Assembly: GCA_020348925.1 (NCBI GenBank)
Contig: CP070758.1
Location: forward strand, 3,053,688-3,117,687
Source of the DNA: Gemmatimonadota bacterium
GTDB taxonomy: Bacteria > JBHIER01 > G020348925
DNA: 64,000 bases
Direction: 5' to 3'
The notes below the pieces were generated by a model. The model was not told the DNA's origin. It did no database searches and saw only the letters and a list, made by a program, of their open reading frames with translations. Shown here piece after piece: positions 3,336-19,245 of this stretch; within the stretch, counting starts at the first letter, position 1; every line of letters starts with the position of its first letter. Made by a program: the position numbers and the translations under genes.

Positions 3336-4883
3336 TCATTCATTGATCCCCATCTTCTTGAGCATCTTGCTCAGTCCTAGGCGGCTGATGCCAAGCTTTT
3401 CAGCGGCTTTGGTTTTGTTTCCGTTGGATTTTTCCAACGCCTTCAGGACCATACGTCGTTTGACCTGATTCAAAGCGTCATTCAGGGTTCCTGTTTCCCC
3501 CGGAATGATGGCGTCGTGCATTTCAAGAAATTGTCCGGGTAAGTGTTCGGGTCTGATCATCTCATCTTCCTCTGCAGCCAGAGCCACCGCCCTCTCCACG
3601 ACGTTTTCAAGTTCTCGGACATTCCCGGGCCAGTTGTACCCTTCCAGCAGATTCATGGCCTCCGAAGTAAAACGGCTGGTCTGTTTCCCGGACGTTTGTC
3701 GAAAATGTGTCAGGAAGTGATAAGCCAACATGGAAATATCCTCTTTTCGGTGACGCAGAGGGGGCATTTCAACAGCAACCACGTTCAGACGGTAGTAAAG
3801 GTCCTCGCGAAATTTCTGTTCCTGAACAAGATTGAGTAGGTCGGAGCTGCTGGCCGAAATAATTCGTACGTCAACCTTCGTGGTGGTTGTCGCCCCTACC
3901 GGTCGGATCTCCTTCTCCTGAAAGGCCCTGAGCAGTTTGCCCTGGACAGGCAAGGCCATGTTTGAAATCTCGTCCAAAAAGAGTGTTCCCCCGTTGGCCT
4001 CCTCGAACAGACCGATCTTGTCTTTGACGGCGCCGGTGAAGGCCCCTTTGATATAACCGAAGAGTTCACTTTCCAGCAGATTTTCCGGAAGCGCCCCGCA
4101 GTCCACGGCCACGAATCGTTTGTCCTTTCGCGGGCCGTTGTAGTGGATAGCCTTGGCCACTAACTCCTTGCCGGTGCCGCTTTGCCCATAGATGATGATA
4201 TTTGCTTCACTTGAGACGATCCGTTCCAAGAGGGTATAGACCTTCTGCATCGGTCCGCTTTGACCGATGAGCTCTCCGAACTGGTAGCGCTTCTCCACCT
4301 CTTTTTTTAAATGGACATTTTCCTGTGACAATTTCTGACATAAACGGGCGTTCTCCAGTACTTGTGCCGACTGTGAAGAAAGGATAGATACGAGCCTGAC
4401 ATCCTCTGGCGAAAAAGTTTTTTCCTGCTTGTGGCTCAAATTAATAGCTCCGATAACCTTATCTTTTGCCACAAGCGGTACACTGAGGGCCGCTTTGACA
4501 GGAAATTCCTTGCCTTTGAATCCCGGGAATCTCTGATCGTCGGTCAGTTTGTCGATGACGAGCGGTTCTTTATTGTGGACAATCCAGCCTGTAAGCTGTG
4601 AATCGATCATGTGGGCGAGGGAGTGATCTTTGGGAGGAATTCCTCTGAGAAGCGTCGTCATGCCCCCGGGGGTCTGGTCATCGACAACAAAAATAGAACC
4701 TTGCTCCGCCCCGGTCAGAGAGATGGCTTCCTCCGCAATAATTTTCAAAATTTTGTTAACATCTCCTGTGGAGGCAATTGCTCGCGAGACCCGGTTCAGG
4801 GCTTCAAGCTCCTTGACCCTACGATTCAGGCGATCGAATTCTTTCTTCACGTCATGGTTTTCACGGATGTTCGTCTTGCGCAT
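3336..4883 (-). CDS. Sigma-54-dependent transcriptional activator (GAF - AAA+ - Fis HTH)
   Basis: GAF domain, Walker A GQSGTGKE, ESELFGY..GAFTGA, Walker B FLDEI, WPGNVRELEN and a C-terminal HTH. Start placed at ATG 4883 to avoid overlap with the kinase gene. Confidence 0.93.
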   Translation of the reverse strand: MRKTNIRENHDVKKEFDRLNRRVKELEALNRVSRAIASTGDVNKILKIIAEEAISLTGAEQGSIFVVDDQTPGGMTTLLRGIPPKDHSLAHMIDSQLTGWIVHNKEPLVIDKLTDDQRFPGFKGKEFPVKAALSVPLVAKDKVIGAINLSHKQEKTFSPEDVRLVSILSSQSAQVLENARLCQKLSQENVHLKKEVEKRYQFGELIGQSGPMQKVYTLLERIVSSEANIIIYGQSGTGKELVAKAIHYNGPRKDKRFVAVDCGALPENLLESELFGYIKGAFTGAVKDKIGLFEEANGGTLFLDEISNMALPVQGKLLRAFQEKEIRPVGATTTTKVDVRIISASSSDLLNLVQEQKFREDLYYRLNVVAVEMPPLRHRKEDISMLAYHFLTHFRQTSGKQTSRFTSEAMNLLEGYNWPGNVRELENVVERAVALAAEEDEMIRPEHLPGQFLEMHDAIIPGETGTLNDALNQVKRRMVLKALEKSNGNKTKAAEKLGISRLGLSKMLKKMGINE

Positions 4884-4956
4884 TTTGTGCCCCCGCTTTT
4901 CATCGTAATTTCTATGGCGTAGTGAGCCGTTGCAACCCTCCAAGTTACGATCACTT

Positions 4957-7953
4957 TCACCGTTCTCCTGACAAGTTCGCCAATCGTTCCTTGGCATCGA
5001 TCAATTCCGGGAGATCCTCGTCCGCATCCTTCCAGATTTCAAGGAACGTCATGTACTGATCGATGGCCTTGTTGAACCAGCCTTTTGCTTCGTACAATTG
5101 AGCCAGCCTGTAGTGGTATTTGGGATGAATGAGAAATTGCTCTTTACTCTTTGGATGAAACGTAATCAATCGTTCGTATTCGGTGATGGCCTTGTCCAAC
5201 TCTCCTTGTTGTCGATAAGCACGTGCCAGTATGTCCCTGAGGAAGGGTGCGTTATAGGGTATTAGATATCGGCTGAGCATATCAGGTGTTTCCCAAGGAG
5301 GTACCTTCTCCCACACGGCGACGGCTTTATCGAGGGAGTCTTCCGCAAGCAAGATCTCTCCTTTTAAGACGTTGTAATAGAATGTTATCCAATCCTTATG
5401 CGATGGATCTATTTCAGGAAGAAGAGATTTCATCTCAGCCAATCTGGACTTTGCAGAATCGGTCTGTCCATCCTTCAAGTCCACCAGCCCAAGGTAGAAG
5501 CTAAACTCTACCGTATAAAATGGTGCGGATGGTGATGCTGTGTATGGAAGGGGGTGCTCTACCATAAAATCATACCAGAGGCTGAAATGTCTTCGGCCAA
5601 GTTCAAGCTCTCCATGATCATAATAAATCCACCCCTTCATCCAGTCCGCAACAACTTTCCTCCACTCATTCCCTACCGCTTGTGCCAGGTCAGAGGCCTC
5701 ATCAAGCGTGGAGAGGGATCTCTCAAGGTTACCGAACCAGTAGTAGTAAAGCCCTTTCCACCAACACCCTTCGGCCCTTATGCCGGGGGATGGGGCAACA
5801 TTAATGTACTGGTCAATCCAGTTCATGGCCTCGGAGTAGTTTCCCTTGAGAGCACAGATGTATCCTATCTTCCAATAAGAACGAAAAAAATCAGGTTTTA
5901 CCTCCAAGGCTTCTTTGTATTTCGCTATCGCTTCTTCAGGCCTTCCCATTTGAAGCAATATGTCAGCCATTGAATCGAACGGATTGGCGTCCCCAGGGGA
6001 GATCGATGCATACCTTTCGAAATATTCGATAGCCTTTTCGAAATTCCCCATGTCAGCATATGCGAAAGCAAGTTGATTAAGGGCAAATCCATATTTGGGA
6101 TCGAGCTCCAGCGCTCTGGTGTACTTTTCTATGGCTTCATAGAACAAGTTTTTGCTGTGGTAATATAAAGCCAAATTGAAGTAAACTCGTTTCTCTCTGG
6201 GGTATTTCTCGGCCATCTGTTGGAAGATACGTAATCCTGTCTCCGGATTGCTCTCCATTGTCCATGCATATGTTGCTTCTATATAAAGTTTCTCTTTGTC
6301 CGTTGCTCTCTGTGAATAGGTCTTCGCTTTCTCAAAGGCCTCGTTTCTCGCTTTCACGTCCCCCAACATGCCATAAGTCCAGGCAAGGTGCAGGTAGGCC
6401 ACAGCAAAGGACGGATCGAGTTGGACAGCTTTTTCAAGGAATTGGCGGGCTTCAGCATAGTAGAGTTTTTCCAAATCTTCTCTCCCTCTCAGAAAATAAT
6501 TATACGCATCCAATGAGGTCGTCGTGACTTCCCGAATCGGCCGTTGCGTTTCTACTATCCGGTGGTCTGATATGCCCACACCGCGAGATATCTCACTGCT
6601 CAACTCGTCAATCTGGCTTCTCAGTATGCTGGCCTCTCCTTTCCCCTTCGTGCTGGCACTCTTCAGAAGTCTCTTCGTTTCGACATCCAAAACTTTCACA
6701 TCAGTCGCAAACATATCCCCTGCTTTGACGAAACTGCCCAGGACAATGGCATCCACACCATCCATGCGACAGAGCTCGATGCCCAGATCCCTGTCAATGA
6801 TCTCCATATCCTCCTTTCCCATTTTCTTGAGAAGATCACGCATCCGTTCCCAGGTGCTTACCTGTAAATATGGCGACTGCTCAAGGCTCGTAATTAAGAG
6901 GTTTGGAATTGCTTTTCGCAGATGGTCGTATGCTTGATCTCCGGTCTGATTCTCGAAGCTTATTACTGCAATGGATGTCGGCTCTGCCACAGACCTCTGT
7001 TGAAAAAGAAGAGATCTGAGTATAAAAAATCCTGGAAAAAGTAAGAAGACTATTATTACTGTTATTGAGATTTTCGTGAGTTGCCTCTTTCTTATTTCTT
7101 GTTCAGCAAGAGTTCGGGAGCGAACCTCACCAGGGATTAATAGCTCATTCCTGAGAACATTCAGATCCTTGTGAAGCTCATCCGCACTCTGGTACCGTTT
7201 CTCCTTGTCCTTCCTCAAAGCTTTTGATGTAATCTGTTCTAATCCGTGAGGTACGTGCGGAGCAACTTTATGAACCGGCTCGGGCTTTTGATGGACAACG
7301 GAATAGAGAACAGCCAAATCATTGTCCCCGGTAAAAGGGAGTCGGCCGGTGAGCATTTCATACAATACAGTACCAAGGGAAAAAATGTCCGAGCGGTGAT
7401 CGGCTTCCTCACAACGAGCCTGTTCCGGGGACATATAGGCCGGTGTACCCATGATTGTTCCCTCTCTGGTCACCAGGCTGCTGTCTTTGAATTTGGCCAG
7501 GCCGAAGTCGGTGATTTTCACCTGGCCTGTTTTCGTGATCATGATGTTCGAGGATTTTATATCCCGGTGAATGATTCCTTTTGAATGGGCGGCGGCAAGG
7601 CCTTCGGTTATCTGGATAGCGAGATTCAGAGTCTCTTCTGTTGGTAGCGGACCGCCCTGGGTCTTTTCTTTCAGGCTGTGCCCTTCGATATAGGCCATAA
7701 CGATGAACCACTCACCGTCGTCCTCTTCGATTTCGTAAATAGTGGCGATGTTGGGATGATCGAGGGCAGAAGCCGCCTGGGCCTCGTGGAAGAAACGATT
7801 CTTGATCTCCGTATCCTTTGTGAGCTGGGCTGGTAGAAACTTGAGGGCGACGATTCGATGCAATCTCTTATCTTCGGCTTTGTAGACAACTCCCATGCCG
7901 CCTTCGCCAATTTTCTCCAGGATGTGGTAGTGAGATATCGTCTTGCCGATCAT
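4957..7953 (-). CDS. Hanks-type Ser/Thr protein kinase with TM helix, TolB-N/CsgG-like domain and TPR repeats
   Basis: GEGGMGVVY, VALK, HRDIKSSN, DFGLA, YMSPE; hydrophobic helix ISITVIIVFLLFPGFFIL; SIAVISFEN domain; many TPRs. Confidence 0.93.
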   Translation of the reverse strand: MIGKTISHYHILEKIGEGGMGVVYKAEDKRLHRIVALKFLPAQLTKDTEIKNRFFHEAQAASALDHPNIATIYEIEEDDGEWFIVMAYIEGHSLKEKTQGGPLPTEETLNLAIQITEGLAAAHSKGIIHRDIKSSNIMITKTGQVKITDFGLAKFKDSSLVTREGTIMGTPAYMSPEQARCEEADHRSDIFSLGTVLYEMLTGRLPFTGDNDLAVLYSVVHQKPEPVHKVAPHVPHGLEQITSKALRKDKEKRYQSADELHKDLNVLRNELLIPGEVRSRTLAEQEIRKRQLTKISITVIIVFLLFPGFFILRSLLFQQRSVAEPTSIAVISFENQTGDQAYDHLRKAIPNLLITSLEQSPYLQVSTWERMRDLLKKMGKEDMEIIDRDLGIELCRMDGVDAIVLGSFVKAGDMFATDVKVLDVETKRLLKSASTKGKGEASILRSQIDELSSEISRGVGISDHRIVETQRPIREVTTTSLDAYNYFLRGREDLEKLYYAEARQFLEKAVQLDPSFAVAYLHLAWTYGMLGDVKARNEAFEKAKTYSQRATDKEKLYIEATYAWTMESNPETGLRIFQQMAEKYPREKRVYFNLALYYHSKNLFYEAIEKYTRALELDPKYGFALNQLAFAYADMGNFEKAIEYFERYASISPGDANPFDSMADILLQMGRPEEAIAKYKEALEVKPDFFRSYWKIGYICALKGNYSEAMNWIDQYINVAPSPGIRAEGCWWKGLYYYWFGNLERSLSTLDEASDLAQAVGNEWRKVVADWMKGWIYYDHGELELGRRHFSLWYDFMVEHPLPYTASPSAPFYTVEFSFYLGLVDLKDGQTDSAKSRLAEMKSLLPEIDPSHKDWITFYYNVLKGEILLAEDSLDKAVAVWEKVPPWETPDMLSRYLIPYNAPFLRDILARAYRQQGELDKAITEYERLITFHPKSKEQFLIHPKYHYRLAQLYEAKGWFNKAIDQYMTFLEIWKDADEDLPELIDAKERLANLSGER

Positions 7954-7988
7954 CGAACAATCCTCGTGTGTGATAAATAATATTTGTA

Positions 7989-8017
7989 AGAATACATAAA
8001 TTCGATTTCAATTTCAA
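7989..8017 (-). promoter_or_regulatory. Putative sigma-70 promoter for the kinase
   Basis: Minus strand TTGAAA-17 nt-TATTCT. Confidence 0.5.
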
Positions 8018-8155
8018 GATTTTTTCACGTCAGGAAATGCAAGATTCCAATTTTGTGACGTACATAAAAGATGAAGTATTTTGACGTACGAAAGGAAAGC
8101 GGACTTTGGAAGGAAAAATATTTCACTGAGATGACAAAAAGGTCGACATTTATTA

Positions 8156-8184
8156 TTGCTTATTTTTTAAAATTTTATTATATT
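8156..8184 (+). promoter_or_regulatory. Putative sigma-70 promoter for the redox cluster
   Basis: TTGCTT-17 nt-TATATT in an AT-rich divergent intergenic region. Confidence 0.5.
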
Positions 8185-8271
8185 TCGAATCTTTTAAACA
8201 ACCGGCTGGACCGCGCGTCTATACTTGAAGAGTAAGGGGATCTTATTGTTAACTTCAACCTCTCGGAAACG

Positions 8272-8748
8272 ATGAACATGGAAACAGAAAAGATCGAGAA
8301 GATTTTGGAGGAGAACGGCTACGATCGGGCAGGTCTCATTCCGATTCTTCAAGATGTGCAGACAGAGTTCAATTATCTGCCCCAGGAAGCACTTTCATAT
8401 GTGGCGGAAAAACTGGAAATCCCGCTTATTGATGTCTACTGTGTGGCTTCATTTTTCAAGTCCTTCAGTTTAAAACCGAGGGGCGAACACCTCGTCACGG
8501 TGTGTCTTGGCACAGCCTGTCATGTCAAAAGAGCATCCTCAGTTCTGGATGAAATCGAGAAGAGACTGGGAATACGGCCTGGGGAGAATACTGAGGATAT
8601 GCAGTTTACACTTGAGACGGTGAACTGCCTCGGGGCGTGCGCCCTGGCTCCTATTGTCGTGGTCGATGGCGATTACTATGGGCAAACAACCACGAAAAAA
8701 ATCGATTCGATACTGAAGACATACAAGAGGGGTGACAAGAAGGAGTAG
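8272..8748 (+). CDS. NuoE/HndA/HydC-like [2Fe-2S] subunit
   Basis: LIPILQDVQ..NYLP, VCLGTACHV, LETVNCLGACALAP. Confidence 0.92.
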   Translation: MNMETEKIEKILEENGYDRAGLIPILQDVQTEFNYLPQEALSYVAEKLEIPLIDVYCVASFFKSFSLKPRGEHLVTVCLGTACHVKRASSVLDEIEKRLGIRPGENTEDMQFTLETVNCLGACALAPIVVVDGDYYGQTTTKKIDSILKTYKRGDKKE

Positions 8749-8753
8749 GAACA

Positions 8754-9146
8754 ATGATCCAGGTCAATGTGGAATGCCCCCGCTGTCGCACCAGCCTTAT
8801 GGATCCCGAACACAAGATCGATGATCATGACAGCATTTTCGTCGTCATCGAGTTTCAGAATAAACGAGGGTGGCTGCGTTTGAGCTCGTTGTATGGCAGT
8901 TATACCATAGAAAGTGAATACGAGATCCCGCCCGACACCGTGACCAGATTCTTCTGTCCCCACTGCCAATCCGAGTTGAAGAGCACCAGAACGTGTGAAG
9001 CGTGCGGTACACCCATGGTCGCGATGCATTTCAAGGACGGCGGCCACGTGCAGATCTGTTCCCGGCGCGGGTGTAGACACCATCTCGTTGAATTCAGGGA
9101 ATTGGAAACAGAGCTCAGAGCGTTTTATGATCGTTATTCCAACTAA
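8754..9146 (+). CDS. Cys-rich zinc-ribbon-like protein
   Basis: CPRC, CPHC, CEAC, CSRRGC..H; tightly linked in the operon with RBS AGGAG. Confidence 0.75.
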   Translation: MIQVNVECPRCRTSLMDPEHKIDDHDSIFVVIEFQNKRGWLRLSSLYGSYTIESEYEIPPDTVTRFFCPHCQSELKSTRTCEACGTPMVAMHFKDGGHVQICSRRGCRHHLVEFRELETELRAFYDRYSN

Positions 9147-9185
9147 TAAAAGCACGGTTAACTTAATGAAGGGATGGAGGGGAAC

Positions 9186-9569
9186 ATGCCAAAACTGAAG
9201 TTAGAGGATTTGAAAAAGATCAGGGAAAAGGTCAAACAAACCACTGTTCTGCGCGAAGGTGGGGGAAGGGCCAAGGTGACGGTTCACATGGGTACATGCG
9301 GCATAGCTGCTGGAGCGCGAGACATTATGGATACTCTGCTGAAAGAAATCGAGGCTCAAGATGTGAAAGACGTTATCGTGACCGCTTCCGGATGCGCAGG
9401 GCTGTGCAGTCGGGAACCCATGGCTACCGTGGAGGTGCTGGGAAAACCGCCCGTGAAATATGTCGATTTGACACGGGAAAAGATCACCCGAATCTTCAAC
9501 GAACATGTTTTGAACGGCAATGTCGTGACTGAGTTTGCGCTTGCCGTCGGCAGTGAGCGGACTGTGTAG
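9186..9569 (+). CDS. Thioredoxin-like [2Fe-2S] ferredoxin (HndB/HydD-like)
   Basis: VHMGTCGIAAGAR, SGCAGLCSREP; RBS GGAGG before ATG 9186. Confidence 0.88.
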   Translation: MPKLKLEDLKKIREKVKQTTVLREGGGRAKVTVHMGTCGIAAGARDIMDTLLKEIEAQDVKDVIVTASGCAGLCSREPMATVEVLGKPPVKYVDLTREKITRIFNEHVLNGNVVTEFALAVGSERTV

Positions 9570-9644
9570 CGTGTGCGTATGATATCCACGGTGAACAGAC
9601 TTTTGAAAAGTGCGTATTTGGAGAAGTAGAATTATTGCCGATAG

Positions 9645-9680
9645 TTCACCCTTGCAGTGGGAAGTGAACGGACTGTATAA
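9645..9680 (+). pseudogene. Relic copy of the 3' end of the preceding HndB-like gene
   Basis: Translates FTLAVGSERTV* versus FALAVGSERTV* at 9534-9569; the other differences are synonymous. Confidence 0.7.
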
Positions 9681-9710
9681 AGGTAATCGGTCTTATCAAG
9701 GGAGATTGAA

Positions 9711-12700
9711 TTGAAAGCCTATCGAACACATTTACTGGTTTGTGCAGGAACGGGCTGCGTCTCGAATCATTCGTTTGATATTAAAGCCGCTCTGGAACAA
9801 GAGATCAAAAAGCAAAAGCTTGAAAACGAGATAGTGGTGATAACGACAGGATGCAACGGATTCTGCGAACGGGGACCGATTGTCTTTGTCCAGCAAGAAG
9901 GAATCTATTATCAGATGTTGAAGCTTGAGGACATACCCTTTTTAGTCGAGGAGCATTTTGTTAAACATCGACCTGTTGAAAAGCTCATGTACATTCCACC
10001 TGATGAGGAAAAACTCATTCCGACAATGAGTGAGATCGATTTCTTCAAACATCAGCGGTTGATCGTGCTGAAAAACAGAGGACGCATCGATCCTGAAAGC
10101 ATTGATGAGTACATCGCCTTCGGTGGATACGAATCCTTGGCCAAGGCGTTGCTGCTTCTGACGCCGGAAGAGATCATTGATGAGATAAAAACATCCGGCC
10201 TGCGGGGTAGGGGAGGTGGGGGGTTTCCTACCGGTATCAAATGGGAATTAACCCGGAAGGCACCGGGAAACATTAAGTACATAATTTGCAATGCAGACGA
10301 AGGCGATCCCGGAGCTTTTATGGATCGAAGTATTCTCGAAGCCGATCCTCACGCCGTCCTGGAAGGCATGGCCATTGGTGCTTATGCCATCGGTGCAACA
10401 AAGGGGTTTGTGTATGTCCGGAATGAATATCCCCTGGCCGTCGATCGAATTAAACTGGCCATTCGGCAGGCCGAGGACTACGGCCTTCTCGGAGAGCGAA
10501 TCTTCGATACGGATTTTAGTTTCAAAGTGAATGTGGTCCGGGGTGCCGGAGCCTTTGTGTGCGGCGAGGAGACGGCCCTCATGGCTTCTGTAGAAGGGAA
10601 AATCGGTCGGCCGAGACAACGCCCCCCCTTTCCCGCTCAAAAAGGTCTGTGGGGAAAGCCGACGAATATCAATAATGTTGAGACCTGGGCCAATGTTCCG
10701 GTTATTATCGACCGGAGCGGAACATGGTTCTCGGAAATAGGCACTGAAAACAGTAAAGGTACCAAGATATTCTCGTTGGTGGGCAAAGTGAATAACACCG
10801 GTTTGGTGGAAGTGCCCATGGGCATTACCCTCCGGCAAATTATTTTCGATATAGGCGGAGGTGTCCAAAAGGAGAAAGCGTTCAAAACAGTACAGATTGG
10901 TGGGCCGTCAGGAGGGTGTATACCCAAAGAGCATCTGGATATGGCCGTCGACTATGATGAGCTCAAGAAGGTGGGGGCCATGATGGGATCAGGTGGTCTT
11001 ATTGTTATGGACGAGGACACCTGTATGGTTGACGTCGCGAAATATTTTACACGTTTTCTGTACGACGAGTCGTGTGGAAAATGTCTGTCCTGCCGCGACG
11101 GATTGAAGCGCATGCAAGAGATTCTGAGGGACATTACGGAGGGCAGGGCAACTGAAGCCGACCTCGGTCTGTTGGAAGATCTCGCTTATGTTGTCAAAGA
11201 TGCGTCCATGTGCGGATTGGGACAGACGGCGGCCAATCCGGTGTTGAGTTCTCTGAGGCATTTCAGAGATGAGTACGAAGCCCACATAAAATACAAAAGA
11301 TGCCCTGCTGCTGTGTGTAAAGAGATCATCTCTTCACCGTGTCAACATATCTGTCCCATAGGAACAGAAGCTCCGATTTATATAGCTCTGATAGCCCATG
11401 GGAAATATGAAGACGCTTTGAATATTATATGGAAGGATAATCCTCTTCCCTCTGTCTGTGGGCGGGTATGCCATCACCCGTGTGAATCAAAATGTCGGGC
11501 TGGTGAGGGAGGCGACCCGATCGCCATACGCACCCTGAAGCGATTCGCAACGGATTATGCCTTAAAAACCGGAATTGAACCCGACATACAACGGCAGCCG
11601 AAAAGGGAAGAAAAAGTGGCCATCGTCGGTTCAGGCCCGGCAGGATTGACGGCCGGCTATTTTCTTGCCTTAAAAGGATATGAAGTTACAATCTTTGAGG
11701 CTCTACCGGTGGCGGGTGGTATGCTTGCAGTGGGCATACCGGAACACAGGTTGCCGAAAGAGATCCTCAAAGCTGATCTTGATCAGATTCAGAAAGCCGG
11801 AGTTCGAATTGAAACAAATGTCGCCTTGGGACGGGACGTCACTTTGGAAGATCTTCACAAACAGGGTTATGCATCCATCTTTCTGGCTACCGGTGCGCAT
11901 AAGAGTTTCAAGCTGGGCATTCCCGGTGAGGAGGCCGACGGGGTCTTCCCTTCCATGCGTTTCTTGACGGACATCAATCTTGGGAGAGACGTTGAGGTCG
12001 GCAAACGGGTTGGTGTTATCGGTGGTGGCAACGCCGCCCTCGACGCTGCCAGAGTTGCTCTGAGGCTCGAAGGGTGCGAGGAAGTCTCCATCATCTATAG
12101 GAGAACACGAGCCGAAATGCCCGCCTATGAAGAAGAGATCGTGAAGGCGATTGAGGAAGGCATCGATATCCAATTTCTCGCTGCTCCGACAAAAGTGCTC
12201 ACTGAAAACGGTCGGCTCGTTGGCATAGAATGTGTTCGCATGGAATTGGGGGCAATGGATGAGAGTGGACGACGAAGACCGATCCCCGTTCAGGGGTCTG
12301 AATTTTCGTTGCAGCTCGATACGCTCATTGCTGCTATTGGGGAACAGCCCGATCTTTCCTTCGCAACTGACAAAGAGAGTTTTGATGTATCACCATGGAA
12401 CACTATCATCGTTGACTCCGAGACCTTGGCAACCAATCAAGAGGGTCTTTGGGCCGGAGGCGATGTGGTTACGGGTCCTGGTACGGTCGTTGAAGCTATC
12501 GCTGTGGGCAAGCGGGCGGCCGATTCCATTGACACATATTTACGGGGGGAACAATTCATACGAACATACACCGTGACGAGACCCTCAGTTTCTGTCACAC
12601 CTGTTGAACTGACGGACGAAGAGATCGCCGAGACCCAACGACCTGAAATGCCCTGTTTGCTCGTTGAAGAAAGGTCTAAAAATTTTAAAGAGGTCGAATT

Positions 12701-12827
12701 GGGATACGGAGAAAAGATGGCAGTGAAGGAGGCACGGCGATGTCTCCGGTGTGATCTCGATGTGAAAACAGAAACTGAAGTAGATCAGGATGGTGAGGTA
12801 TTCGAAAAGGAAAAGGTTCATGCCTAA
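9711..12827 (+). CDS. NuoF/HydB-like flavoprotein fused to a GltD/NfnB-like FAD/NAD(P)H oxidoreductase module
   Basis: N-terminal 2Fe-2S (CAGTGC..GCNGFC), GRGGGGFP, NADEGDPGAFMDR, CGEETAL, GGPSGG, ESCGKCLSC..CGLG; then PCQHICP, CGRVCHHPCESKC, GSGPAG, GGGNAA..YRRT, AGGD and EARRCLRC. TTG start. Confidence 0.92.
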   Translation: MKAYRTHLLVCAGTGCVSNHSFDIKAALEQEIKKQKLENEIVVITTGCNGFCERGPIVFVQQEGIYYQMLKLEDIPFLVEEHFVKHRPVEKLMYIPPDEEKLIPTMSEIDFFKHQRLIVLKNRGRIDPESIDEYIAFGGYESLAKALLLLTPEEIIDEIKTSGLRGRGGGGFPTGIKWELTRKAPGNIKYIICNADEGDPGAFMDRSILEADPHAVLEGMAIGAYAIGATKGFVYVRNEYPLAVDRIKLAIRQAEDYGLLGERIFDTDFSFKVNVVRGAGAFVCGEETALMASVEGKIGRPRQRPPFPAQKGLWGKPTNINNVETWANVPVIIDRSGTWFSEIGTENSKGTKIFSLVGKVNNTGLVEVPMGITLRQIIFDIGGGVQKEKAFKTVQIGGPSGGCIPKEHLDMAVDYDELKKVGAMMGSGGLIVMDEDTCMVDVAKYFTRFLYDESCGKCLSCRDGLKRMQEILRDITEGRATEADLGLLEDLAYVVKDASMCGLGQTAANPVLSSLRHFRDEYEAHIKYKRCPAAVCKEIISSPCQHICPIGTEAPIYIALIAHGKYEDALNIIWKDNPLPSVCGRVCHHPCESKCRAGEGGDPIAIRTLKRFATDYALKTGIEPDIQRQPKREEKVAIVGSGPAGLTAGYFLALKGYEVTIFEALPVAGGMLAVGIPEHRLPKEILKADLDQIQKAGVRIETNVALGRDVTLEDLHKQGYASIFLATGAHKSFKLGIPGEEADGVFPSMRFLTDINLGRDVEVGKRVGVIGGGNAALDAARVALRLEGCEEVSIIYRRTRAEMPAYEEEIVKAIEEGIDIQFLAAPTKVLTENGRLVGIECVRMELGAMDESGRRRPIPVQGSEFSLQLDTLIAAIGEQPDLSFATDKESFDVSPWNTIIVDSETLATNQEGLWAGGDVVTGPGTVVEAIAVGKRAADSIDTYLRGEQFIRTYTVTRPSVSVTPVELTDEEIAETQRPEMPCLLVEERSKNFKEVELGYGEKMAVKEARRCLRCDLDVKTETEVDQDGEVFEKEKVHA

Positions 12828-13536
12828 GGTAACAATCAACGGCTTAGAATTCGAGGCTGAGAAAGGTTCAACCCTCTTGGAAGTGGCGGACTTTTTAGGA
12901 ATTGAAATACCGACTCTGTGTTACCATGAAGGTTTGAGTCCTTACGGGGCCTGTCGGCTGTGCGTTGTCGAGATAGGAGTGGGTGAAAATACTCGGCTTG
13001 TGACTTCCTGTACGTATCCTGTTCAGGAAGGATTGAATATTCGAACACATTCCGAACGAGTTGTGCGAACTCGAAAGATGCTCATAGAGCTCCTCTTGGC
13101 AACCTGTCCGAGTTCCAAAGTCATTCAGGATCTTGCGTCGAAATTCGGCGTGACACAGGTTCGATTCAAACAGGAACATAACGACTGTATTTTATGTGGT
13201 CTGTGCGTACGAATGTGTGCTGAGCAGATGGATGGTAAGGCTATCGGCCTCGTGGGCCGGGGTGATGATTTGAAAATCACGACACCTTTTGATATCAAAT
13301 CGGAGCAGTGTCGCCTGTGCGGCGGGTGTATGTACATCTGTCCGGCCTGTCAGCTTCGATGTCAGGGGCCTGACGTGGAGGAAGCTGTCTGCAATGCCTG
13401 CCTCAACCTGGAACCCCCCTGTCTGGAATCCTGGGACGATGCCATGTGCTACATGGATCCGTGTGTAGCCTGTGAAGTGGAATATTCGAGAAAACCGAAG
13501 GTGAAAAAAGAGAAAACCTCGAAAGAACAATCATAA
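12820..13536 (+). CDS. Short NuoG/HydA-N-terminal-like Fe-S protein with Cys-rich tail
   Basis: IPTLCYH..GACRLC..TSC (2Fe-2S), CILCGLCVRMC and CRLCGGCMYICP (2x 4Fe-4S), plus 8 further Cys. The ATG overlaps the end of the upstream gene. Confidence 0.88.
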   Translation: MPKVTINGLEFEAEKGSTLLEVADFLGIEIPTLCYHEGLSPYGACRLCVVEIGVGENTRLVTSCTYPVQEGLNIRTHSERVVRTRKMLIELLLATCPSSKVIQDLASKFGVTQVRFKQEHNDCILCGLCVRMCAEQMDGKAIGLVGRGDDLKITTPFDIKSEQCRLCGGCMYICPACQLRCQGPDVEEAVCNACLNLEPPCLESWDDAMCYMDPCVACEVEYSRKPKVKKEKTSKEQS

Positions 13537-13577
13537 TACTTTCGACAAGAACAACCTGATTTTCAAGGAGGAACAGA

Positions 13578-15161
13578 ATGTCGTTTACGACGATCAATCG
13601 TTCAGCTGCGACACTGACGAAAAATAGAACCGAGGGTTCCATTAGTCCTTTTTCCGGTATGTGCGTGACCTGTGTTGATGGTTGCGTGGGGATGTGTGAG
13701 ATCGGGAAGTCGGCTTACCGGGGCAGTGAGGTCATTTATCCGCAACCCTTCGGTCTCATCACCACGGCATCGGAGAAAGACTATCCCATCGATTATTCCC
13801 ATTTCACCATTCTTGGGACGGCTGTGGGAGCGGTTGGTGTGGCCCAGGATAGCGATGTGGCTATTTTTCCCAATGTGAGTTTGGAATCGACCTTTGGGAG
13901 TGATAAGGGCATTAAATTTAGACTTCCCATCATGATCCCGGGTCTGGGATCGACCAATGTTGCCAAGAACAATTGGGAGGGGTTGGCCATCGGAACGGCT
14001 CTGGCCGGCACGGGCCTCACGATTGGTGAGAACGTCGTCGGTATGGACCCCGAGTCCGAGATAAAAGGTGGTAAAGTCGTCAAGGCTCCGGATCTGTCCT
14101 GGCGGATAAAACTTTTCAAAGACTGGCAGCGTGATGGATACGGGATGATAGTCGTGCAAGCCAATGTCGAGGATACCCGGCTCGGCGTGCAGGAGTATGC
14201 CATCAGTGAACTCGGCGTGGAGACTGTTGAGCTTAAGTGGGGGCAGGGAGCCAAGGATATCGGCGGTGAGGTCAAGATCAAGAATTTGGAAAAGGCACAG
14301 CTTCTCTATAAACGCGGCTATGTCGTTCTGCCCGATCCCACGAATCCCGACGTGATCAAAGCTTTCGAACATGGAACCTTCAAGGAGTTCGAACGGCATT
14401 CGCGTGTGGGTATGGTGACCGAAGAGGATTTCCTGAAGCGGGTTGAGGAGCTGAGGGCGGCCGGGGCAAAATATGTGTTTTTGAAAACCGGCGCTTACAG
14501 ACCTGCCGATCTGGCCCGCGCAGTGAAGTTCTCGTCGAAAGCCAAGATTGACCTCCTGACCGTTGACGGAGCCGGTGGGGGTACCGGCATGAGCCCCTGG
14601 CGGATGATGAACGAGTGGGGTATTCCCGGGGTAGAGATCCATTCGCTTGCGTATAAGTATACACATCAATTGGCTCAAAAGGGGGAGTATGTCCCGGCGC
14701 TCGCCTTCGCCGGCGGGTTCACTTTCGAGGATCAGATATACAAGGCGATAGCTTTGGGCGCCCCGTACGTAAAACTTGTGGGAATGGCCCGTGGTCCTCT
14801 TGCTGCGGCCATGGTCGGCAAGACCATCGGGAAACGTATCAACGAGGGCCAGCTTCCCGTTTACGTGGAGCGGTTCGGGGATTCGAAGGATGAAGTCTTT
14901 GTCACCTCTGCGGAGTTGCGGAAGGAGCTCGGTCCTGAGAAATTCGAGGAGTTGCCCACAGCGGCCATCGGTCTGTACACGTATTATGAGCGGCTCGCTC
15001 AGGGATTGCAGCAGCTCATGTGCGGCAATCGCAAGTTTGCCCTGGAGTATATCAGCCGGGAAGATATAGCGTCCCTGACGAAAGAGGCCGCCGACGTGAG
15101 CGGTATCACCTACATAACGGACGTCGATCAGAAAGAGGTGGAGAAGATCCTTGCCAGCTAA
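13578..15161 (+). CDS. Stand-alone FMN-binding glutamate synthase family protein
   Basis: ELKWGQGAKDIGGE, TVDGAGGGTG, AGG..KAIALGA..VGMAR (GltB FMN-barrel motifs); N-terminal CVTCVDGCVGMC; no amidotransferase domain. Confidence 0.85.
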   Translation: MSFTTINRSAATLTKNRTEGSISPFSGMCVTCVDGCVGMCEIGKSAYRGSEVIYPQPFGLITTASEKDYPIDYSHFTILGTAVGAVGVAQDSDVAIFPNVSLESTFGSDKGIKFRLPIMIPGLGSTNVAKNNWEGLAIGTALAGTGLTIGENVVGMDPESEIKGGKVVKAPDLSWRIKLFKDWQRDGYGMIVVQANVEDTRLGVQEYAISELGVETVELKWGQGAKDIGGEVKIKNLEKAQLLYKRGYVVLPDPTNPDVIKAFEHGTFKEFERHSRVGMVTEEDFLKRVEELRAAGAKYVFLKTGAYRPADLARAVKFSSKAKIDLLTVDGAGGGTGMSPWRMMNEWGIPGVEIHSLAYKYTHQLAQKGEYVPALAFAGGFTFEDQIYKAIALGAPYVKLVGMARGPLAAAMVGKTIGKRINEGQLPVYVERFGDSKDEVFVTSAELRKELGPEKFEELPTAAIGLYTYYERLAQGLQQLMCGNRKFALEYISREDIASLTKEAADVSGITYITDVDQKEVEKILAS

Positions 15162-15195
15162 TATCACCTGTCAAACGGTATAGAGGGTAGAGGAT

Positions 15196-16440
15196 ATGGA
15201 CAAGACCTCTGTGGCACACATAGCCCGAATGCAGCTTGAAAAGGCGGCTCGGGCTATGAATTTATCTGAGGATCTTGTGACGGTTTTGAAGTGCCCCAAG
15301 CGGATTCTTCAGGTGACCTTTCCCGTCAAGCGGGATGACGGGACGGTCACGTGTTTCACCGGATACCGCTGTCAGTACAATGATGCCAGGGGTCCGACCA
15401 AAGGTGGGGTGCGATACCACCCCAATGTCTCGGCAGACGAGGTCATTGCTCTGGCCGCCTGGATGACGTGGAAATGCGCCCTGGTCGATCTGCCCTATGG
15501 TGGGGCCAAGGGGGGAGTCGTATGCGACCCGACGCACTTGTCCGAAGGGGAGATGGAGCGGTTGACGCGGCGGTATACGACCGAGATCATGCCCATTCTC
15601 GGACCCCATTCCGACATTCCCGCCCCCGATGTCTTCACCACATCCAAAACCATGGCCTGGATGATGGATACCTACAGCATGTTTACAGGCCACACGGAAC
15701 CGAGCGTCGTCACCGGGAAACCGGAGGCGCTCGGAGGTTCCTTGGGGCGGAAGGAGGCCACAGGCAGGGGTGTAGCCATCATTACCCGAGAACTTTTTAC
15801 GAAGCTGAAACGCTCCTTGGAGGGTGCCACTGTGGCCGTTCAGGGGTTCGGAAATGTCGGGGGGTACGCCGCGTTCTTTCTGTCGGAAATGGGGGCGAAA
15901 ATTATCGCAGTGTCCGATTCCTCCGGGGGCTTCGTCAATCCTGATGGGTTCAACGTTCCCGAACTTATGCGCTGTGTCGACGAGCACACGTGTCTGGCTC
16001 CATACCCCGGTGAAAAAATGGATAAGGATGAGGTGCTGTACAAGGACGTCGATGTGCTCATTCCGGCAGCTCTGGAAAACCAGATCCGCGGGGACAACGC
16101 CCCGAGGGTTCAGGCGAAGATCATTGTGGAAGGAGCCAACGGTCCCACGGCACCGGAGGCCGATGAAGTTTTGGAATCAAAGGGTGTCCATGTCGTGCCC
16201 GACATCATGGCCAATTCGGGTGGTGTCATCGTCAGCCATTTGGAATGGGTGCAGGCCATGACTGGGTTGTACATGGGTGAAGATGAGGTCAATGGGCGTT
16301 TAGAGGGTCGACTCGTGCGGAGTTTTGAAGCCGTGTGGCGTAAGGCGCATGAGTTGCGCGTCTCCCTGAGAACGGCGGCATATATCGTGGCGCTGGAGCG
16401 AATTGCCGAAGTCCATCGGTACCGAGGGCTGTTTCCGTAA
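15196..16440 (+). CDS. gdhA: Glu/Leu/Phe/Val dehydrogenase, most likely glutamate dehydrogenase
   Basis: GPTKGGVRYHP, MTWKCA, PYGGAKGG, DIPAPDV, GFGNVG, EGANGPT, PDIMANSGGV. Confidence 0.9.
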   Translation: MDKTSVAHIARMQLEKAARAMNLSEDLVTVLKCPKRILQVTFPVKRDDGTVTCFTGYRCQYNDARGPTKGGVRYHPNVSADEVIALAAWMTWKCALVDLPYGGAKGGVVCDPTHLSEGEMERLTRRYTTEIMPILGPHSDIPAPDVFTTSKTMAWMMDTYSMFTGHTEPSVVTGKPEALGGSLGRKEATGRGVAIITRELFTKLKRSLEGATVAVQGFGNVGGYAAFFLSEMGAKIIAVSDSSGGFVNPDGFNVPELMRCVDEHTCLAPYPGEKMDKDEVLYKDVDVLIPAALENQIRGDNAPRVQAKIIVEGANGPTAPEADEVLESKGVHVVPDIMANSGGVIVSHLEWVQAMTGLYMGEDEVNGRLEGRLVRSFEAVWRKAHELRVSLRTAAYIVALERIAEVHRYRGLFP

Positions 16441-16531
16441 ATGGAACTCTATCGGTCTGGGAGGTTTTTCCCTCAGATAATTGATACGATCCAAACAAAC
16501 GTTTTCACTTTCGAACAAAAGGGAGGAGACA

Positions 16532-17875
16532 GTGGCTGAGAAAAAGATGACCGAAGAAGAATTGCTGGCCAAGGCGTACAAACCGGCCGAGGATGCCATG
16601 CGACTGCACCCTTTTTACCGGGGGAAGATCGAAGTCATTCCGAAGTGCCGCATTCGTGATTTTGACGACTTTGCCATCTGGTATACACCTGGGGTGGCTG
16701 AGCCGTGCAGAGACATCCACGAGCATCCGGAGAGAGTTCTGGAACATACGAGCAAGTGGAATATGGTGGCTGTGATCACCGACGGCACCCGTGTCCTGGG
16801 TTTGGGGGACATCGGGCCTGAAGGTGGCCTGCCCGTCATGGAGGGAAAAGCGCTGCTGTACAAATATCTCGGCGGTGTCGATGCCTTTCCTCTGTGTGTG
16901 GATACGAAAGACCCGGATGAGATAATCGATCTCGTTCTCAAATTACAGCCCAGTTTCGGTGGGATCAATCTTGAGGACATCTCGCACCCGAAATGTTTTT
17001 ACATTTTGGACACGTTGCGGGAGAAGGCCCGCATACCCATCTGGCACGACGACCAGCAGGGGACAGCCGCCGTGACCTGTGCGGGGCTCATCAATGCTCT
17101 GAAATTGACCGATCGCAAGATCGGTGAGGTGAAGGTGGCCATGATCGGGGCTGGCGCTTCCAATATTGCCATTGCCAGAATGATTATTACAATGGGTGTT
17201 GACCCGAAAAAAGTGATCATGTCCGACAGCAGGGGCATACTTCATAAAGGCCGAACCGAGTTACAGGAGAAGTTCAAAGAGAAGTGGCATATGTGCGAGA
17301 TTTCCAACGAGGAGCAGGTTGAAGGTGGACCGGCTGAGGCGATGAAGGGCGCGGATGTGCTGATTGCTCTGTCCACACCGGGGCCGGATACAGTCAAGAA
17401 GGAATGGGTCGCCAGTATGGCCAAAGATCCGATTGTCTTCGTCTGCGCCAATCCCATACCTGAGATATGGCCGTGGGAAGCGAAAGAGGCCGGCGCTGCC
17501 ATCGTCGCCACGGGTCGGTCCGACTTTCCCAATCAGGTCAATAACTCCCTGGGATTCCCCGGCATCTTTCGTGGAACGCTGGATGTCATGGCCACGACGA
17601 TCACCGATGAGATGTGCATCGCGGCGGCGACGGAGTTGGCCAAGGTGGCCGAGGATAAGGGGCTGCGTGAAGATTATCTGGTTCCGACCATGGACGAATG
17701 GGAGGTCTTCCCGAGGGAGGCTGTGGCTGTCGGACAGAAGGCCATTGAACAGGGTGTGGCCCGTCGGAAGCTGTCACCGGAGCAAGCCTTTACTATTGCC
17801 GGGGACATTATTCAGCACTCGCGCGAAGAGATCCAATGCCTGATGAAGGAGGGATTCATCAAGATGGGCGACTGA
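16532..17875 (+). CDS. NAD(P)-dependent malic enzyme (short type)
   Basis: YTPGVA, DGTRVLGLGDIG, PVMEGK, INLEDI, HDDQQGTA, GAGAS, ANPIPEI, ATGRSDFPNQVNN; GTG start after GGAGG. Confidence 0.93.
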   Translation: MAEKKMTEEELLAKAYKPAEDAMRLHPFYRGKIEVIPKCRIRDFDDFAIWYTPGVAEPCRDIHEHPERVLEHTSKWNMVAVITDGTRVLGLGDIGPEGGLPVMEGKALLYKYLGGVDAFPLCVDTKDPDEIIDLVLKLQPSFGGINLEDISHPKCFYILDTLREKARIPIWHDDQQGTAAVTCAGLINALKLTDRKIGEVKVAMIGAGASNIAIARMIITMGVDPKKVIMSDSRGILHKGRTELQEKFKEKWHMCEISNEEQVEGGPAEAMKGADVLIALSTPGPDTVKKEWVASMAKDPIVFVCANPIPEIWPWEAKEAGAAIVATGRSDFPNQVNNSLGFPGIFRGTLDVMATTITDEMCIAAATELAKVAEDKGLREDYLVPTMDEWEVFPREAVAVGQKAIEQGVARRKLSPEQAFTIAGDIIQHSREEIQCLMKEGFIKMGD

Positions 17876-17934: not shown

Positions 17935-17962
17935 TTGACACGGCGTTCGAGAAGACTATATT
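17935..17962 (+). promoter_or_regulatory. Sigma-70 promoter of the rib operon
   Basis: TTGACA-16 nt-TATATT directly upstream of the riboswitch. Confidence 0.7.
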
Positions 17963-17975
17963 GTAGAAAAATTAT

Positions 17976-18095
17976 TGCAACCTTCGGGGTGAGGTGAGAT
18001 TCCTCAACCGGCGGTGAAAGCCCGCGAGCCATACCATATGGCAGAACCAGTGAAATTCTGGTGCCGACGGTACAGTCCGGAAGGGAGAAGGTCCG
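17976..18095 (+). ncRNA. FMN riboswitch (RFN element)
   Basis: Matches the RFN consensus: ACCTTCGGGGTGAGGTGAGATTCC..ACCGGCGGT..AGCCCGCGAG..GCAGAACCAGTGAAATTCTGGTGCCGACGGTACAGTCCGGAAGGGAGAAGGT; lies upstream of ribD. Confidence 0.96.
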
Positions 18096-18119
18096 TTTTA
18101 AAAACGTTTTATCCCATGA

Positions 18120-18150
18120 GCCCCGATAGGTTGTGATCGGGGTTTTTTTT
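18120..18150 (+). terminator. Riboswitch expression-platform terminator
   Basis: GCCCCGAT/ATCGGGGT stem followed by a T-run, immediately before the ribD start. Confidence 0.85.
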
Positions 18151-19245
18151 ATGGTGCGACGGAACGATGCACATTTTATGGAGCGGGCTCTCAAACTGGC
18201 CGACAAAGGCAGGGGTCAGACGAGCCCAAATCCCATGGTGGGGGCGGTGGTTGTCCGGGCGGGTCGCATTGTGGGTGAGGGCTATCATGAAGGGGCGGGC
18301 TTACCGCACGCTGAGGTGCATGCCCTGAACCAGGCTGGGACGAAGGCGAAGGGAGCGACGCTCTATGTGAATCTCGAACCGTGTTGCCATGCGGGTCGGA
18401 CACCACCCTGTACGAAGGCGATTCTGACAGCGGGCATAGAGAGGGTCGTGTGCGCTGTGGAGGATCCGAATCCGATAGTGTCCGGCCGTGGAGTTCAACA
18501 CTTGCGCGGAGCCGGGATAACCGTCGCGGTCGGTTGTCTGGAGCACGAGGCAGAGAGATTGAATGAAATCTATTTCCATTACATGCGTACAGGTGTTCCC
18601 TTTGTGAGTCTGAAGATCGCCCAAACACTTGATGGTCGCATTGCGGCCTCGAATGGGAGTTCGCGGTGGATATCCGGAGAGGCATCGAGACGGTATGGAC
18701 ATGTCTTGCGTGCGCAGCACGATGCCGTATTGGTCGGCGCCAAGACTGTGGTCCAGGACGATCCTGAGTTGACCGTCCGGCACGTCCAGGGGAAAAATCC
18801 GATTCGAATCATACTTGCCCGTACGCTGGGCATACCCCTGGACTCGAGAGTGGTCAACGACGGCGGCGAGGGGCGAACGAGAGTGGTGACGTCCGTCGAT
18901 GGGGATCCTTCGACGATCGAAGCTTTGCAGAGCAAGGGGGTAGGGATTTGGAGTCTTCCCCTGAACGAGGCGGGGCGTTTCGATCTCACAGCGCTGTTGA
19001 AAAAGGCGGCCGAGGAGGACATCACCAGCCTTTTGGTCGAGGGTGGTTGTGAGGTGTTCTCGACGTTCCTGCGAGCCCGGTTGGTTGACAAGGTTTACAT
19101 CTTCGTTGCTCCGACCATCTTGGGTTCAGGGCTTCCATCTATAGGGGATATCGGCATCGGGACGCTCGAGAATGGACTGCATCTTCGAGACGTCGAAGTC
19201 CGGCGCAGCGGTCAGGATGTGCTCATGACCGGTTATTTGAATTGA
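18151..19245 (+). CDS. ribD: Riboflavin biosynthesis deaminase/reductase
   Basis: PNPMVGAV, HAE, LEPCCH..TPPC, TLDGRIA, LLVEGG. Start uncertain (18151 or 18178). Confidence 0.95.
   Translation: MVRRNDAHFMERALKLADKGRGQTSPNPMVGAVVVRAGRIVGEGYHEGAGLPHAEVHALNQAGTKAKGATLYVNLEPCCHAGRTPPCTKAILTAGIERVVCAVEDPNPIVSGRGVQHLRGAGITVAVGCLEHEAERLNEIYFHYMRTGVPFVSLKIAQTLDGRIAASNGSSRWISGEASRRYGHVLRAQHDAVLVGAKTVVQDDPELTVRHVQGKNPIRIILARTLGIPLDSRVVNDGGEGRTRVVTSVDGDPSTIEALQSKGVGIWSLPLNEAGRFDLTALLKKAAEEDITSLLVEGGCEVFSTFLRARLVDKVYIFVAPTILGSGLPSIGDIGIGTLENGLHLRDVEVRRSGQDVLMTGYLN

Follow-up and report, generated by a model that had tools for sequence, protein, structure and literature searches.

A Bfu-type iron–sulfur flavoprotein module encoded together with a GltB-like FMN barrel, conserved across many phyla

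Introduction

Among the main ways in which anaerobes keep NADH and ferredoxin in balance is the Bfu family, whose enzymes are described with a variety of third substrates. Table 1 of PMC9304861 lists these as H2, formate, NADP, F420, aldehydes, CO, pyruvate, quinone and H2O2; the table contains no flavin mononucleotide (FMN)-barrel head, and nothing in it is tied to amino-acid or nitrogen metabolism. Here we analyse a stretch of 64,000 nucleotides from a Gemmatimonadota bacterium (GenBank assembly GCA_020348925.1, contig CP070758.1, positions 3,053,688 to 3,117,687; hereafter the window), in which eight open reading frames (ORFs) on the + strand, denoted g1 to g8, occupy positions 8272–17875. 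They encode a Bfu-type module, an FMN TIM-barrel protein (g6) of the family of the FMN domain of glutamate synthase (GOGAT), a glutamate dehydrogenase (GDH) and a malic enzyme. The architecture of a Bfu-type module with a barrel is well supported.

Among the closest described systems is WorABCSL, the tungsten aldehyde oxidoreductase-Bfu of Acetomicrobium mobile (PDB 9MQX), a ‘Type 2’ Bfu; in the structural account of PMC12318220 the 247-residue WorA plugs into separate catalytic subunits, to which it passes electrons, by means of a C-terminal Zn finger and helix. Like it, the cluster has a BfuBC core together with a short BfuA lacking a catalytic domain; WorA is the best solved match of g5, and residues 1–543 of g4 match WorB (E = 2.4e-200). 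However, the partner here is an FMN/Fe–S TIM barrel and not WorS/WorL, the tail of g5 has seven to eight conserved cysteines in contrast to the Zn finger and helix of WorA, a GltD domain replaces the B3/B4 ferredoxin domain, and BfuC bears or precedes an eight-cysteine Zn-ribbon. NfnABC/StnABC (PDB 9N5U) also has a BfuBC core together with a GltD/NfnB-like module for FAD, 2×[4Fe–4S] and NADP(H), and the GltD half of g4 matches residues 105–594 of NfnA (E = 5.6e-115). There the catalytic end of BfuA is formed by the GltD-like domain, whereas here the C-terminus of BfuB carries that domain as a fusion (g4 residues 523–931) and g5 has none. BfuA here leads to a further flavoprotein, and 17 of the 61 operons compared below have no GltD.

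In NADPH-dependent GOGAT, GltD is the natural reductase partner of the GltB-type barrel. The likeness of the cluster to GltB/GltD lies in a GltD-type reductase and a PF01645 barrel with QGAK and GGTG motifs, but the similarity is marginal. The N-terminal amidotransferase (GATase_2, PF00310), central (Glu_syn_central, PF04898) and GXGXG (PF01493) domains of GltB are absent from g6, and none was found in the operon or in the 96.3%-complete genome; g6 lacks the 3Fe–4S cysteines and has an N-terminal four-cysteine motif instead, and a NuoE/NuoF/NuoG-type module is interposed. The remaining comparison is with the hydrogenases NiFe-HydABCSL and FeFe-HydABC (7T2R, 7Q4V). Residues 3–541 of g4 are collinear with NiFe-HydB, including H525, C531 and C536, but there is no hydrogenase domain or subunit in the cluster, and BfuA ends after the ferredoxin-like clusters.

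A full-text literature search turned up no account of a GltB-like FMN subunit combined with a NuoEF/Bfu module. Nor was such a combination found by terms in PMC11406978 or in the main text of PMC9304861; the supplement of the latter, which lay outside the search, covers 1558 BfuB sequences with 17 unassigned clades and may include the unfused form.

Results

The cluster encodes a Bfu-type core with a short BfuA

The NuoF half of g4 is defined by profile matches to 2Fe-2S_thioredx (5–79), Complex1_51K (159–330), SLBB (353–409) and NADH_4Fe-4S (441–525), and the GltD half by Fer4_20 (523–621) and Pyr_redox_2 (635–931). The protein can therefore be divided into a NuoF part (residues 1–541) and a GltD/NfnB-type FAD and 2×[4Fe–4S] NAD(P)H module (residues ∼542–1015). 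PF01512 and PF10589 are found, PF10531/PF22461 fall below the cut-off, and the FMN and NADH motifs are present. Of the domains expected of the Bfu family, the NuoF FMN/NADH, SLBB and 4Fe–4S domains (IPR011538, IPR019554, IPR019575) and the N-terminal [2Fe–2S] domain (B5) are represented in g4 as BfuB, the [2Fe–2S] domain (C1) of BfuC in g1, and a 2Fe–2S and a ferredoxin-type 4Fe–4S domain in g5 as BfuA.

The Bfu-specific site H525-x5-C531-x4-C536, which corresponds to the B2-site ligands H525, C531 and C536 of NiFe-HydB, is present in g4, and is kept in 46/47 fused and 17/17 unfused homologues. According to the main text of Schut et al. (PMC9304861) the histidine of this site is retained by almost every BfuB protein and is missing from non-bifurcating homologues. 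In a search of solved structures residues 3–541 of g4 lie residue-for-residue on residues 3–541 of 7t2r_B (E = 4.7e-233), the next relatives of the NuoF half being 7q4v_B (FeFe-HydB), 9mqx_B (WorB) and 9n5u_B (NfnB). The nearest solved chains to the GltD half are 9bov_A, 9n5u_A (NfnA) and 5jca_L (NfnI), and the best match of g5 is WorA (9mqx_A, E = 8.8e-38), with residues 14–200 of g5 on 7–194. The best solved relatives of g4 and g5 are all bifurcating enzymes. A preliminary description of this DNA, made from the sequence alone, had assigned the module to the HydABC/Bfu type; the H-x5-C-x4-C site and the solved relatives HydB, WorB, NfnB and WorA agree with that assignment. Since g5 is WorA-like and g4 is HydB-like, we infer that the module is a Bfu-type core with a short BfuA and belongs to the kind in which such a BfuA serves an additional catalytic subunit.

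In g5 the Fer2_4 domain (14–88) and the Fer4_7 domain (133–186) contain invariant cysteines at 44/55/58/74, 133/136/139/143 and 174/177/180/184. They are followed by a cysteine-rich tail with seven to eight conserved cysteines, among them those at 187, 191, 201, 204, 211, 220 and 228. Homologues begin at residue 11 of g5, so that its start is probably at position 12820.

The match of g1 to PF01257 extends over its full length, HoxE and NuoE being the nearest NCBIfam models, and the cluster cysteines 78, 83, 119 and 123 are kept in 45–46 of 46 homologues. Only 5 nucleotides separate g1 from g2 in the window, where g2 is a separate gene. Cysteines 8, 11, 68, 71, 81, 84, 102 and 107 and His 110 of g2 are invariant in all 46 aligned homologues, and the eight cysteines probably form two four-cysteine metal sites. 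In ∼50 of the 80 loci compared below NuoE and the Zn-ribbon are a single ORF of ∼282 residues, of which the Zn-ribbon is the C-terminal half, and this fusion ties g2 to g1. The match of g3 to PF01257 is partial and below the cut-off (23 bits), and that to NF041612 has E = 5.8e-11.

The eight ORFs are collected in Table 1, with domains called from Pfam and NCBIfam profiles. They are all co-oriented; the gap of 5 nucleotides between g1 and g2 is followed by gaps of 27 and 141, an overlap of g4 with g5, and then gaps of 41, 34 and 40 nucleotides as far as g8, and no convincing terminator was found within the cluster. Searching g1–g8 against Pfam found no Fe_hyd_lg_C, NiFeSe_Hases or Molybdopterin domain. 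The ORFs and profile matches thus agree with the earlier account of eight co-oriented genes with these domains and no H-cluster, NiFe or molybdopterin domain.

Table 1. Genes of the cluster and a divergent regulatory gene, with positions in the window
Gene	Position	Strand	Assignment	Basis
g1	8272..8748	+	BfuC/NuoE/HydC-like [2Fe-2S] subunit, 158 aa	PF01257, 173 bits
g2	8754..9146	+	Zn-ribbon protein, 130 aa	Sub-threshold DZR and MetRS zinc-knuckle matches only
g3	9174..9569	+	HndB-like thioredoxin-type [2Fe-2S] ferredoxin, 131 aa	Weak PF01257; NF041612
g4	9711..12827	+	BfuB/HydB-type NuoF-GltD fusion, 1038 aa	Pfam
g5	12790..13536	+	Short BfuA (NuoG/HoxU N-terminal type), 248 aa	Fer2_4 and Fer4_7
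g6	13578..15161	+	Fe-S/FMN TIM barrel, GltB FMN-domain family, 527 aa	PF01645
g7	15196..16440	+	Glutamate dehydrogenase, 414 aa	ELFV_dehydrog_N and ELFV_dehydrog
g8	16481..17875	+	Malic enzyme, 464 aa	malic and Malic_M
GAF-domain sigma-54 activator	3336..4997	-	Divergent, two genes upstream of the cluster	GAF, Sigma54_activat, HTH_8

The module and the barrel form a conserved unit

Relatives of g6 were sought in one genome per species, and were confirmed in at least 591 species. The best 80 of these were taken as the sample for synteny and searched by tblastn with the eight window proteins; the denominators for individual genes are those loci with sufficient flank (at least 800 nucleotides for g5, at least 4.2 kb for NuoF and at least 5.2 kb upstream for NuoE). 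The g6 orthologues of the 80 loci are 73–79% identical to that of the window and are spread across many phyla, the carriers including KSB1, Zixibacteria, Planctomycetota, Acidobacteriota, Ignavibacteria, Latescibacteria, Marinimicrobia, Eisenbacteria, Dethiobacter, Scalindua and others.

Of 74 loci, 72 have a gene for a short BfuA directly 5′ to that of the barrel; in the two exceptions (L008 and L038) a few hundred more bases separate the two genes. NuoF is present at every one of the 61 loci with adequate flank, in 44 as a GltD fusion and in 17 unfused; 16 of the 17 unfused proteins have a ferredoxin-type dicluster motif. NuoE homologues are found in 53/56 loci and homologues of the g2 Zn-ribbon in 50/56. 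A separate g3-like gene with at least 50% identity occurs in only 4/56 (L008, L038, L058 and L071, where it is 63–76% identical), and g3 is by its distribution among these sequences a lineage-specific accessory. The barrel is the best-conserved protein of the operon, at 73–79% identity compared with 57–70% for g5 and 48–57% for most g4 homologues. Eight diverged paralogues of g6 (41–50% identity) have no NuoEFG neighbours, so that it is the association with NuoEFG that defines the orthologue group. Judged from gene order and content, the conserved unit is g1–g6, with g7 loosely linked and g8 outside. Thus the earlier suggestion of the FMN barrel as partner of the NuoE/NuoF/NuoG-like module is upheld by synteny, while the malic enzyme, which had been counted as part of the same system, has no homologue detected by tblastn in any of the 80 loci, and its membership is not supported.

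Some further features of these loci were seen. A protein of ∼110 residues with eight cysteines and no Pfam match is encoded directly 5′ to NuoE in 20/80 loci, although not in the window; it contains the motif repeats GLCxTCN...C...CE.FD and GLCxxC..R..C...GG.WHCEEY, with examples at L007 4727–5182, L009 4848–5183 and in L048. In 9/80 loci a PPDK_N protein of ∼750 residues (ATP-grasp, phosphoenolpyruvate-utilising N-terminal domain) is encoded 3′ to the barrel, for example at L048 11630–13882, and L017 has two copies. The locus of a Dethiobacter metagenome-assembled genome (L024) has two barrel genes (4147–5709 and 10001–11575, 60 and 76% identical to g6), one on each side of NuoE/NuoF/short-NuoG.

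The barrel protein retains signature motifs of GltB

By sequence the nearest family to g6 is PF01645, the match to which scores 62.4 bits (cut-off 20.4) over residues 279–400, covering only 119 of the 369 profile positions (185–303). An AlphaFold2 model of the protein (pLDDT 85.4, pTM 0.87) has the fold of an FMN TIM barrel, and compares with known FMN TIM barrels with Z-scores of 25–27 (IDI-2 26.8, HAO1 26.1, flavocytochrome b2 26.0); in a Foldseek search GOGAT is one among many matches, with E-values of 1e-9 to 1e-8. A search of solved structures with the g6 profile returned designed TIM barrels only.

The g6 protein retains two signature motifs of GltB, QGAK-x-x-GG and DG(x)GGTG(x)SP, in the same order and with similar spacing, and hhalign aligns ELKWGQGAKDIGGE and VDGAGGGTGMSP of g6 with QIKMAQGAKPGEGGQ and ISGxDGGTGASP of GltB. 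In Synechocystis GltS the lysine of QGAK (K972) and an arginine 20 residues further on (R992) bind 2-oxoglutarate. Canonical GltB sequences have a conserved arginine 20 residues after the QGAK lysine, and K226 and R246 of g6 show the same spacing. At the N-terminus of g6 the motif C29-x2-C32-x3-C36-x3-C40 is conserved.

The family to which g6 belongs is compact but abundant and known by generic names. It gives 1106 matches among representatives at 50% identity, of which only about a dozen are full-length clusters, and at least 8000 clusters at 90% identity with names such as ‘FMN-binding glutamate synthase family protein’. Matches in the ESM Atlas carry automatic ‘glutamate synthase’ names only, and there is no NCBIfam model for g6.

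Glutamate dehydrogenase is a recurrent neighbour

GDH is encoded in 12 of the 80 loci compared with ∼0.74 expected by chance, a ∼16-fold excess; the expectation is based on 15 ELFV-family matches in the 25.5 Mb of seven complete carrier chromosomes, and on a total of 1.25 Mb in the loci. It occurs at two positions in the operon, directly 3′ to the barrel gene in L001, L011, L018, L058, L067 and the window, and between the ∼110-residue cysteine-rich protein and NuoE in L009, L059 and L069. No GDH was found in the other 68/80 loci. The link with glutamate made in the preliminary description holds in part, GDH being co-operonic in these 12 loci, and g7 is a loosely but recurrently linked accessory.

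The genome from which the window is taken is a single contig of 5.04 Mb, with three genes each for glutamine synthetase and GDH; the sequencing runs listed as containing its DNA are all DNA runs, labelled sediment metagenome. Canonical GltB has a match in 9 of 50 carriers of g6, seven of them strong, and in none of the seven complete chromosomes. We considered arguing from co-occurrence that the complex replaces GOGAT and rejected this argument, as the lack of GltB is not specific to carriers: in the Ignavibacteria-like class discussed below it extends to genomes with and without g6. Two of the glutamine synthetase matches (genome 3501879–3502889 and 653025–654035) have identical scores of 417.8 bits and lie in ORFs of 446 residues, and this identity in score and ORF length suggests a duplicated region of the genome.

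Hydrogenases and a paralogous module elsewhere in the genome

The genome contains two FeFe-hydrogenase-like genes, both more than 1.1 Mb from the cluster, and none of its molybdopterin enzymes is encoded closer than 0.9 Mb; a search of the genome found no NiFe hydrogenase. One of the FeFe-like proteins is a 430-residue form without a BfuA-like N-terminus. No hydrogenase or formate dehydrogenase subunit with such an N-terminus is encoded near the cluster, in line with the earlier account of a module with neither catalytic subunit. Separate NuoF genes are located at 4.22 and 4.96 Mb.

The second FeFe-like gene encodes a protein of 686 residues (genome 1925452–1926126; L083 337–2397, - strand) with Fer4, FeFe large-subunit, FeS and HisKA/HATPase_c domains, and from its domains this HydS-type fusion looks like a sensory hydrogenase-kinase. 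A paralogous set of NuoE, HydB-type NuoF and short NuoG lies at 1374613–1378036 (L089 10614–14037, - strand). Its NuoF has 603 residues, is 69% identical to residues 1–551 of g4, and has a ferredoxin-type C-terminus without GltD, while its short NuoG of 221 residues has no cysteine tail. The set is followed by an unusual ORF of 1109 residues that opens with Pyr_redox_2 and contains DUF11 repeats.

Discussion

We propose, at what we judge to be an even balance of probability, that g1–g6 form a single soluble iron–sulfur flavoprotein complex of Bfu type with the barrel as its head, performing glutamine-independent chemistry at a synthase-type site or something close to it. In such a complex g1 with g2 would be BfuC, g4 would be BfuB, with NAD(H) oxidized or reduced at its FMN, and g5 would be a short BfuA with no catalytic domain of its own. 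The working end would be g6, a separate FMN barrel with an N-terminal four-cysteine cluster, wired to g5 through the cysteine-rich tail, and its reaction might be 2-oxoglutarate + NH3 + 2e- <-> L-glutamate or the same reaction on a similar 2-oxo/2-imino acid. The low-potential branch of BfuBC would end in the ferredoxin-type 2×[4Fe–4S] domain in 17 of 61 homologues; because it ends in a fused GltD in the window and in 44 of the 61, NADP(H) probably takes the place of ferredoxin there. The GDH could act as a recurrent counter-enzyme or partner of the complex, and the malic enzyme would be a local neighbour only.

A number of observations weigh against this proposal. The 2-oxoglutarate/glutamate couple is a high-potential one at about -0.1 V, and as such sits awkwardly beside the mid-potential third substrates of the proven Bfu enzymes, and an NH3-dependent glutamate synthase beside a GDH looks redundant. 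The model of g6 fits IDI-2, glycolate and lactate oxidases and flavocytochrome b2 at least as well as GOGAT, IMPDH also being matched, so that another 2-oxo, hydroxy or imino acid is equally compatible with this generic FMN-barrel fold. Comparison of the g6 profile with five canonical GltB FMN domains by hhalign gives a probability of 33% (E = 4.6e-4, 295 columns), GltB was not found among solved chains with either the sequence or the profile of g6, and the LGCxxLRKCHxGxC motif that holds the [3Fe–4S] cysteines of GltB aligns with a cysteine-free stretch of g6. With regard to the core, the ferredoxin-type CxxCxxCxxxCP motif is absent from g4, where the GltD Fer4_20 dicluster domain stands instead. 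The main text of PMC9304861 proposes the C-terminal ferredoxin-type 2×[4Fe–4S] domain of BfuB (IPR017896; clusters B3/B4) as the ferredoxin site, and in the account of PMC12318220 three of the four family members with solved structures have Zn and no cluster at the B2 site. The distribution of GltB is also unhelpful. In the Ignavibacteria-like class canonical GltB is found in 0 of 121 genomes, only 33 of which carry g6, and in the Phycisphaerae-like class, the one class to show a contrast, it is present in 4/12 carriers versus 96/139 others (Fisher 0.02, for kin that are not independent); the scarcity in these carriers is suggestive but weak. The background was drawn from these classes, the window's own phylum being represented by only two genomes.

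The chief alternative is that the same complex acts on another substrate, a small 2-oxo, 2-hydroxy, imino or enoate compound or an inorganic acceptor, and this we take seriously while doubting it. The Pfam label would then reflect only the shared ancestry of FMN barrels, and the GDH neighbours a shared use of NAD(P)H or shared nitrogen regulation. Such a reading sits easily with the generic structural matches to IDI-2, HAO1 and flavocytochrome b2, with GOGAT only one of many in Foldseek, as well as with the low hhalign probability, the lack of an NCBIfam model and the loci without GDH; it accounts less well for the two ordered and similarly spaced GltB motifs, for the recruitment of GDH at two positions in the operon, and for the presence of GltD, the natural partner of GltB-type barrels. 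An Nfn/Stn-like transhydrogenase of NADH (at NuoF), NADPH (at GltD) and ferredoxin, recycling the NADPH of GDH and malic enzyme and using the barrel as an electron-transfer, regulatory or ferredoxin/flavodoxin-docking subunit, appears improbable to us. The GltD half of g4 is indeed nearest to 9n5u_A (NfnA of NfnABC) and 5jca_L (NfnI), two NAD(P)H-producing dehydrogenases lie directly 3′ in the window, and the main text of PMC9304861 describes NfnABC/Stn as an established member of the Bfu enzymes that has a GltD-like domain. However, the same text places that domain on BfuA and not on BfuB, the 17 of 61 operons without GltD retain the barrel, no other protein of the operon is as conserved as the barrel, which stands well above most NuoF-GltD homologues, and malic enzyme is absent from all 80 loci.

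We consider it very improbable that the module works for an enzyme encoded elsewhere, be it a hydrogenase, a formate dehydrogenase or an 11-subunit complex I, with g6 as a co-regulated neighbour. Comparable NuoEFG-like sets of Ignavibacteria relatives are read as a soluble bifurcating hydrogenase in the relevant passage of PMC6338057, and the present genome does have two FeFe-hydrogenase-like genes and several molybdopterin enzymes. Yet in 72 of 74 loci, spread across phyla, the short BfuA gene is followed by that of the barrel, the FeFe-like genes are distant and encode a kinase fusion and the 430-residue form, no NiFe hydrogenase was found, and the genome has its own NuoF genes and a HydBC-like set at 1.38 Mb.

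Returning to the proposal that the barrel works at a synthase-type site, one extension of it, which we think unlikely, is an energy-coupling role for the complex as a glutamate:NAD+/ferredoxin (or NADP+) oxidoreductase that works without glutamine. Its Bfu-type core would link the high-potential 2-oxoglutarate+NH4+/glutamate couple with NADH and with a carrier of low potential. Run one way, the complex would use reduced ferredoxin or NADPH to push the otherwise unfavourable oxidation of glutamate by NAD+, in the manner of the confurcating lactate dehydrogenase/Etf, and in the opposite direction reductive amination would pay for the reduction of ferredoxin. This would be a possible new coupling of glutamate with the NAD(P)H and ferredoxin pools and, if true, a new reaction class for the Bfu family and for glutamate metabolism in at least 591 species. 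Whatever the substrate, the operon is common, mostly among uncultured anaerobes, and many of the sediment phyla that carry it are without canonical GOGAT; knowledge of the reaction would close a gap in the metabolic modelling of phyla such as Zixibacteria, KSB1, Planctomycetota, Ignavibacteria and Aminicenantes.

Neighbouring genes and possible regulation

Upstream of the cluster the window contains a Ser/Thr kinase gene and the divergent GAF-sigma-54 activator of Table 1, which is a possible regulator of the cluster, although the link is weak. In the wider sample a histidine kinase is encoded upstream in the same orientation in 31/80 loci, and a sigma-54 response regulator in 35/80. No sigma-54 promoter with at most three mismatches to the consensus was found at 7954–8271 upstream of g1, and over the whole window the consensus search gave 222 matches versus 225 expected. 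Inspection by eye of the 318-nucleotide region 5′ to g1 revealed the sequence TGACGTAC twice, in similar T-rich surroundings and 26 nucleotides apart (window 8050–8095), and the pair may be a binding site for the GAF-sigma-54 activator or for another regulator.

On the 3′ side of g8, positions 17935–18145 contain a promoter-like TTGACA-16-TATATT, an FMN riboswitch (RF00050, 17976–18096, 104 bits) and a terminator-like hairpin (18118–18145), ahead of ribD, ribE and ribBA (18133–21103). This riboflavin operon is a separate transcription unit from g1–g8, and its position beside a flavoenzyme cluster is probably coincidental. Farther along, at 34322–52412, the window contains three very long ORFs in succession on the + strand, with 1812, 2144 and 1856 residues.

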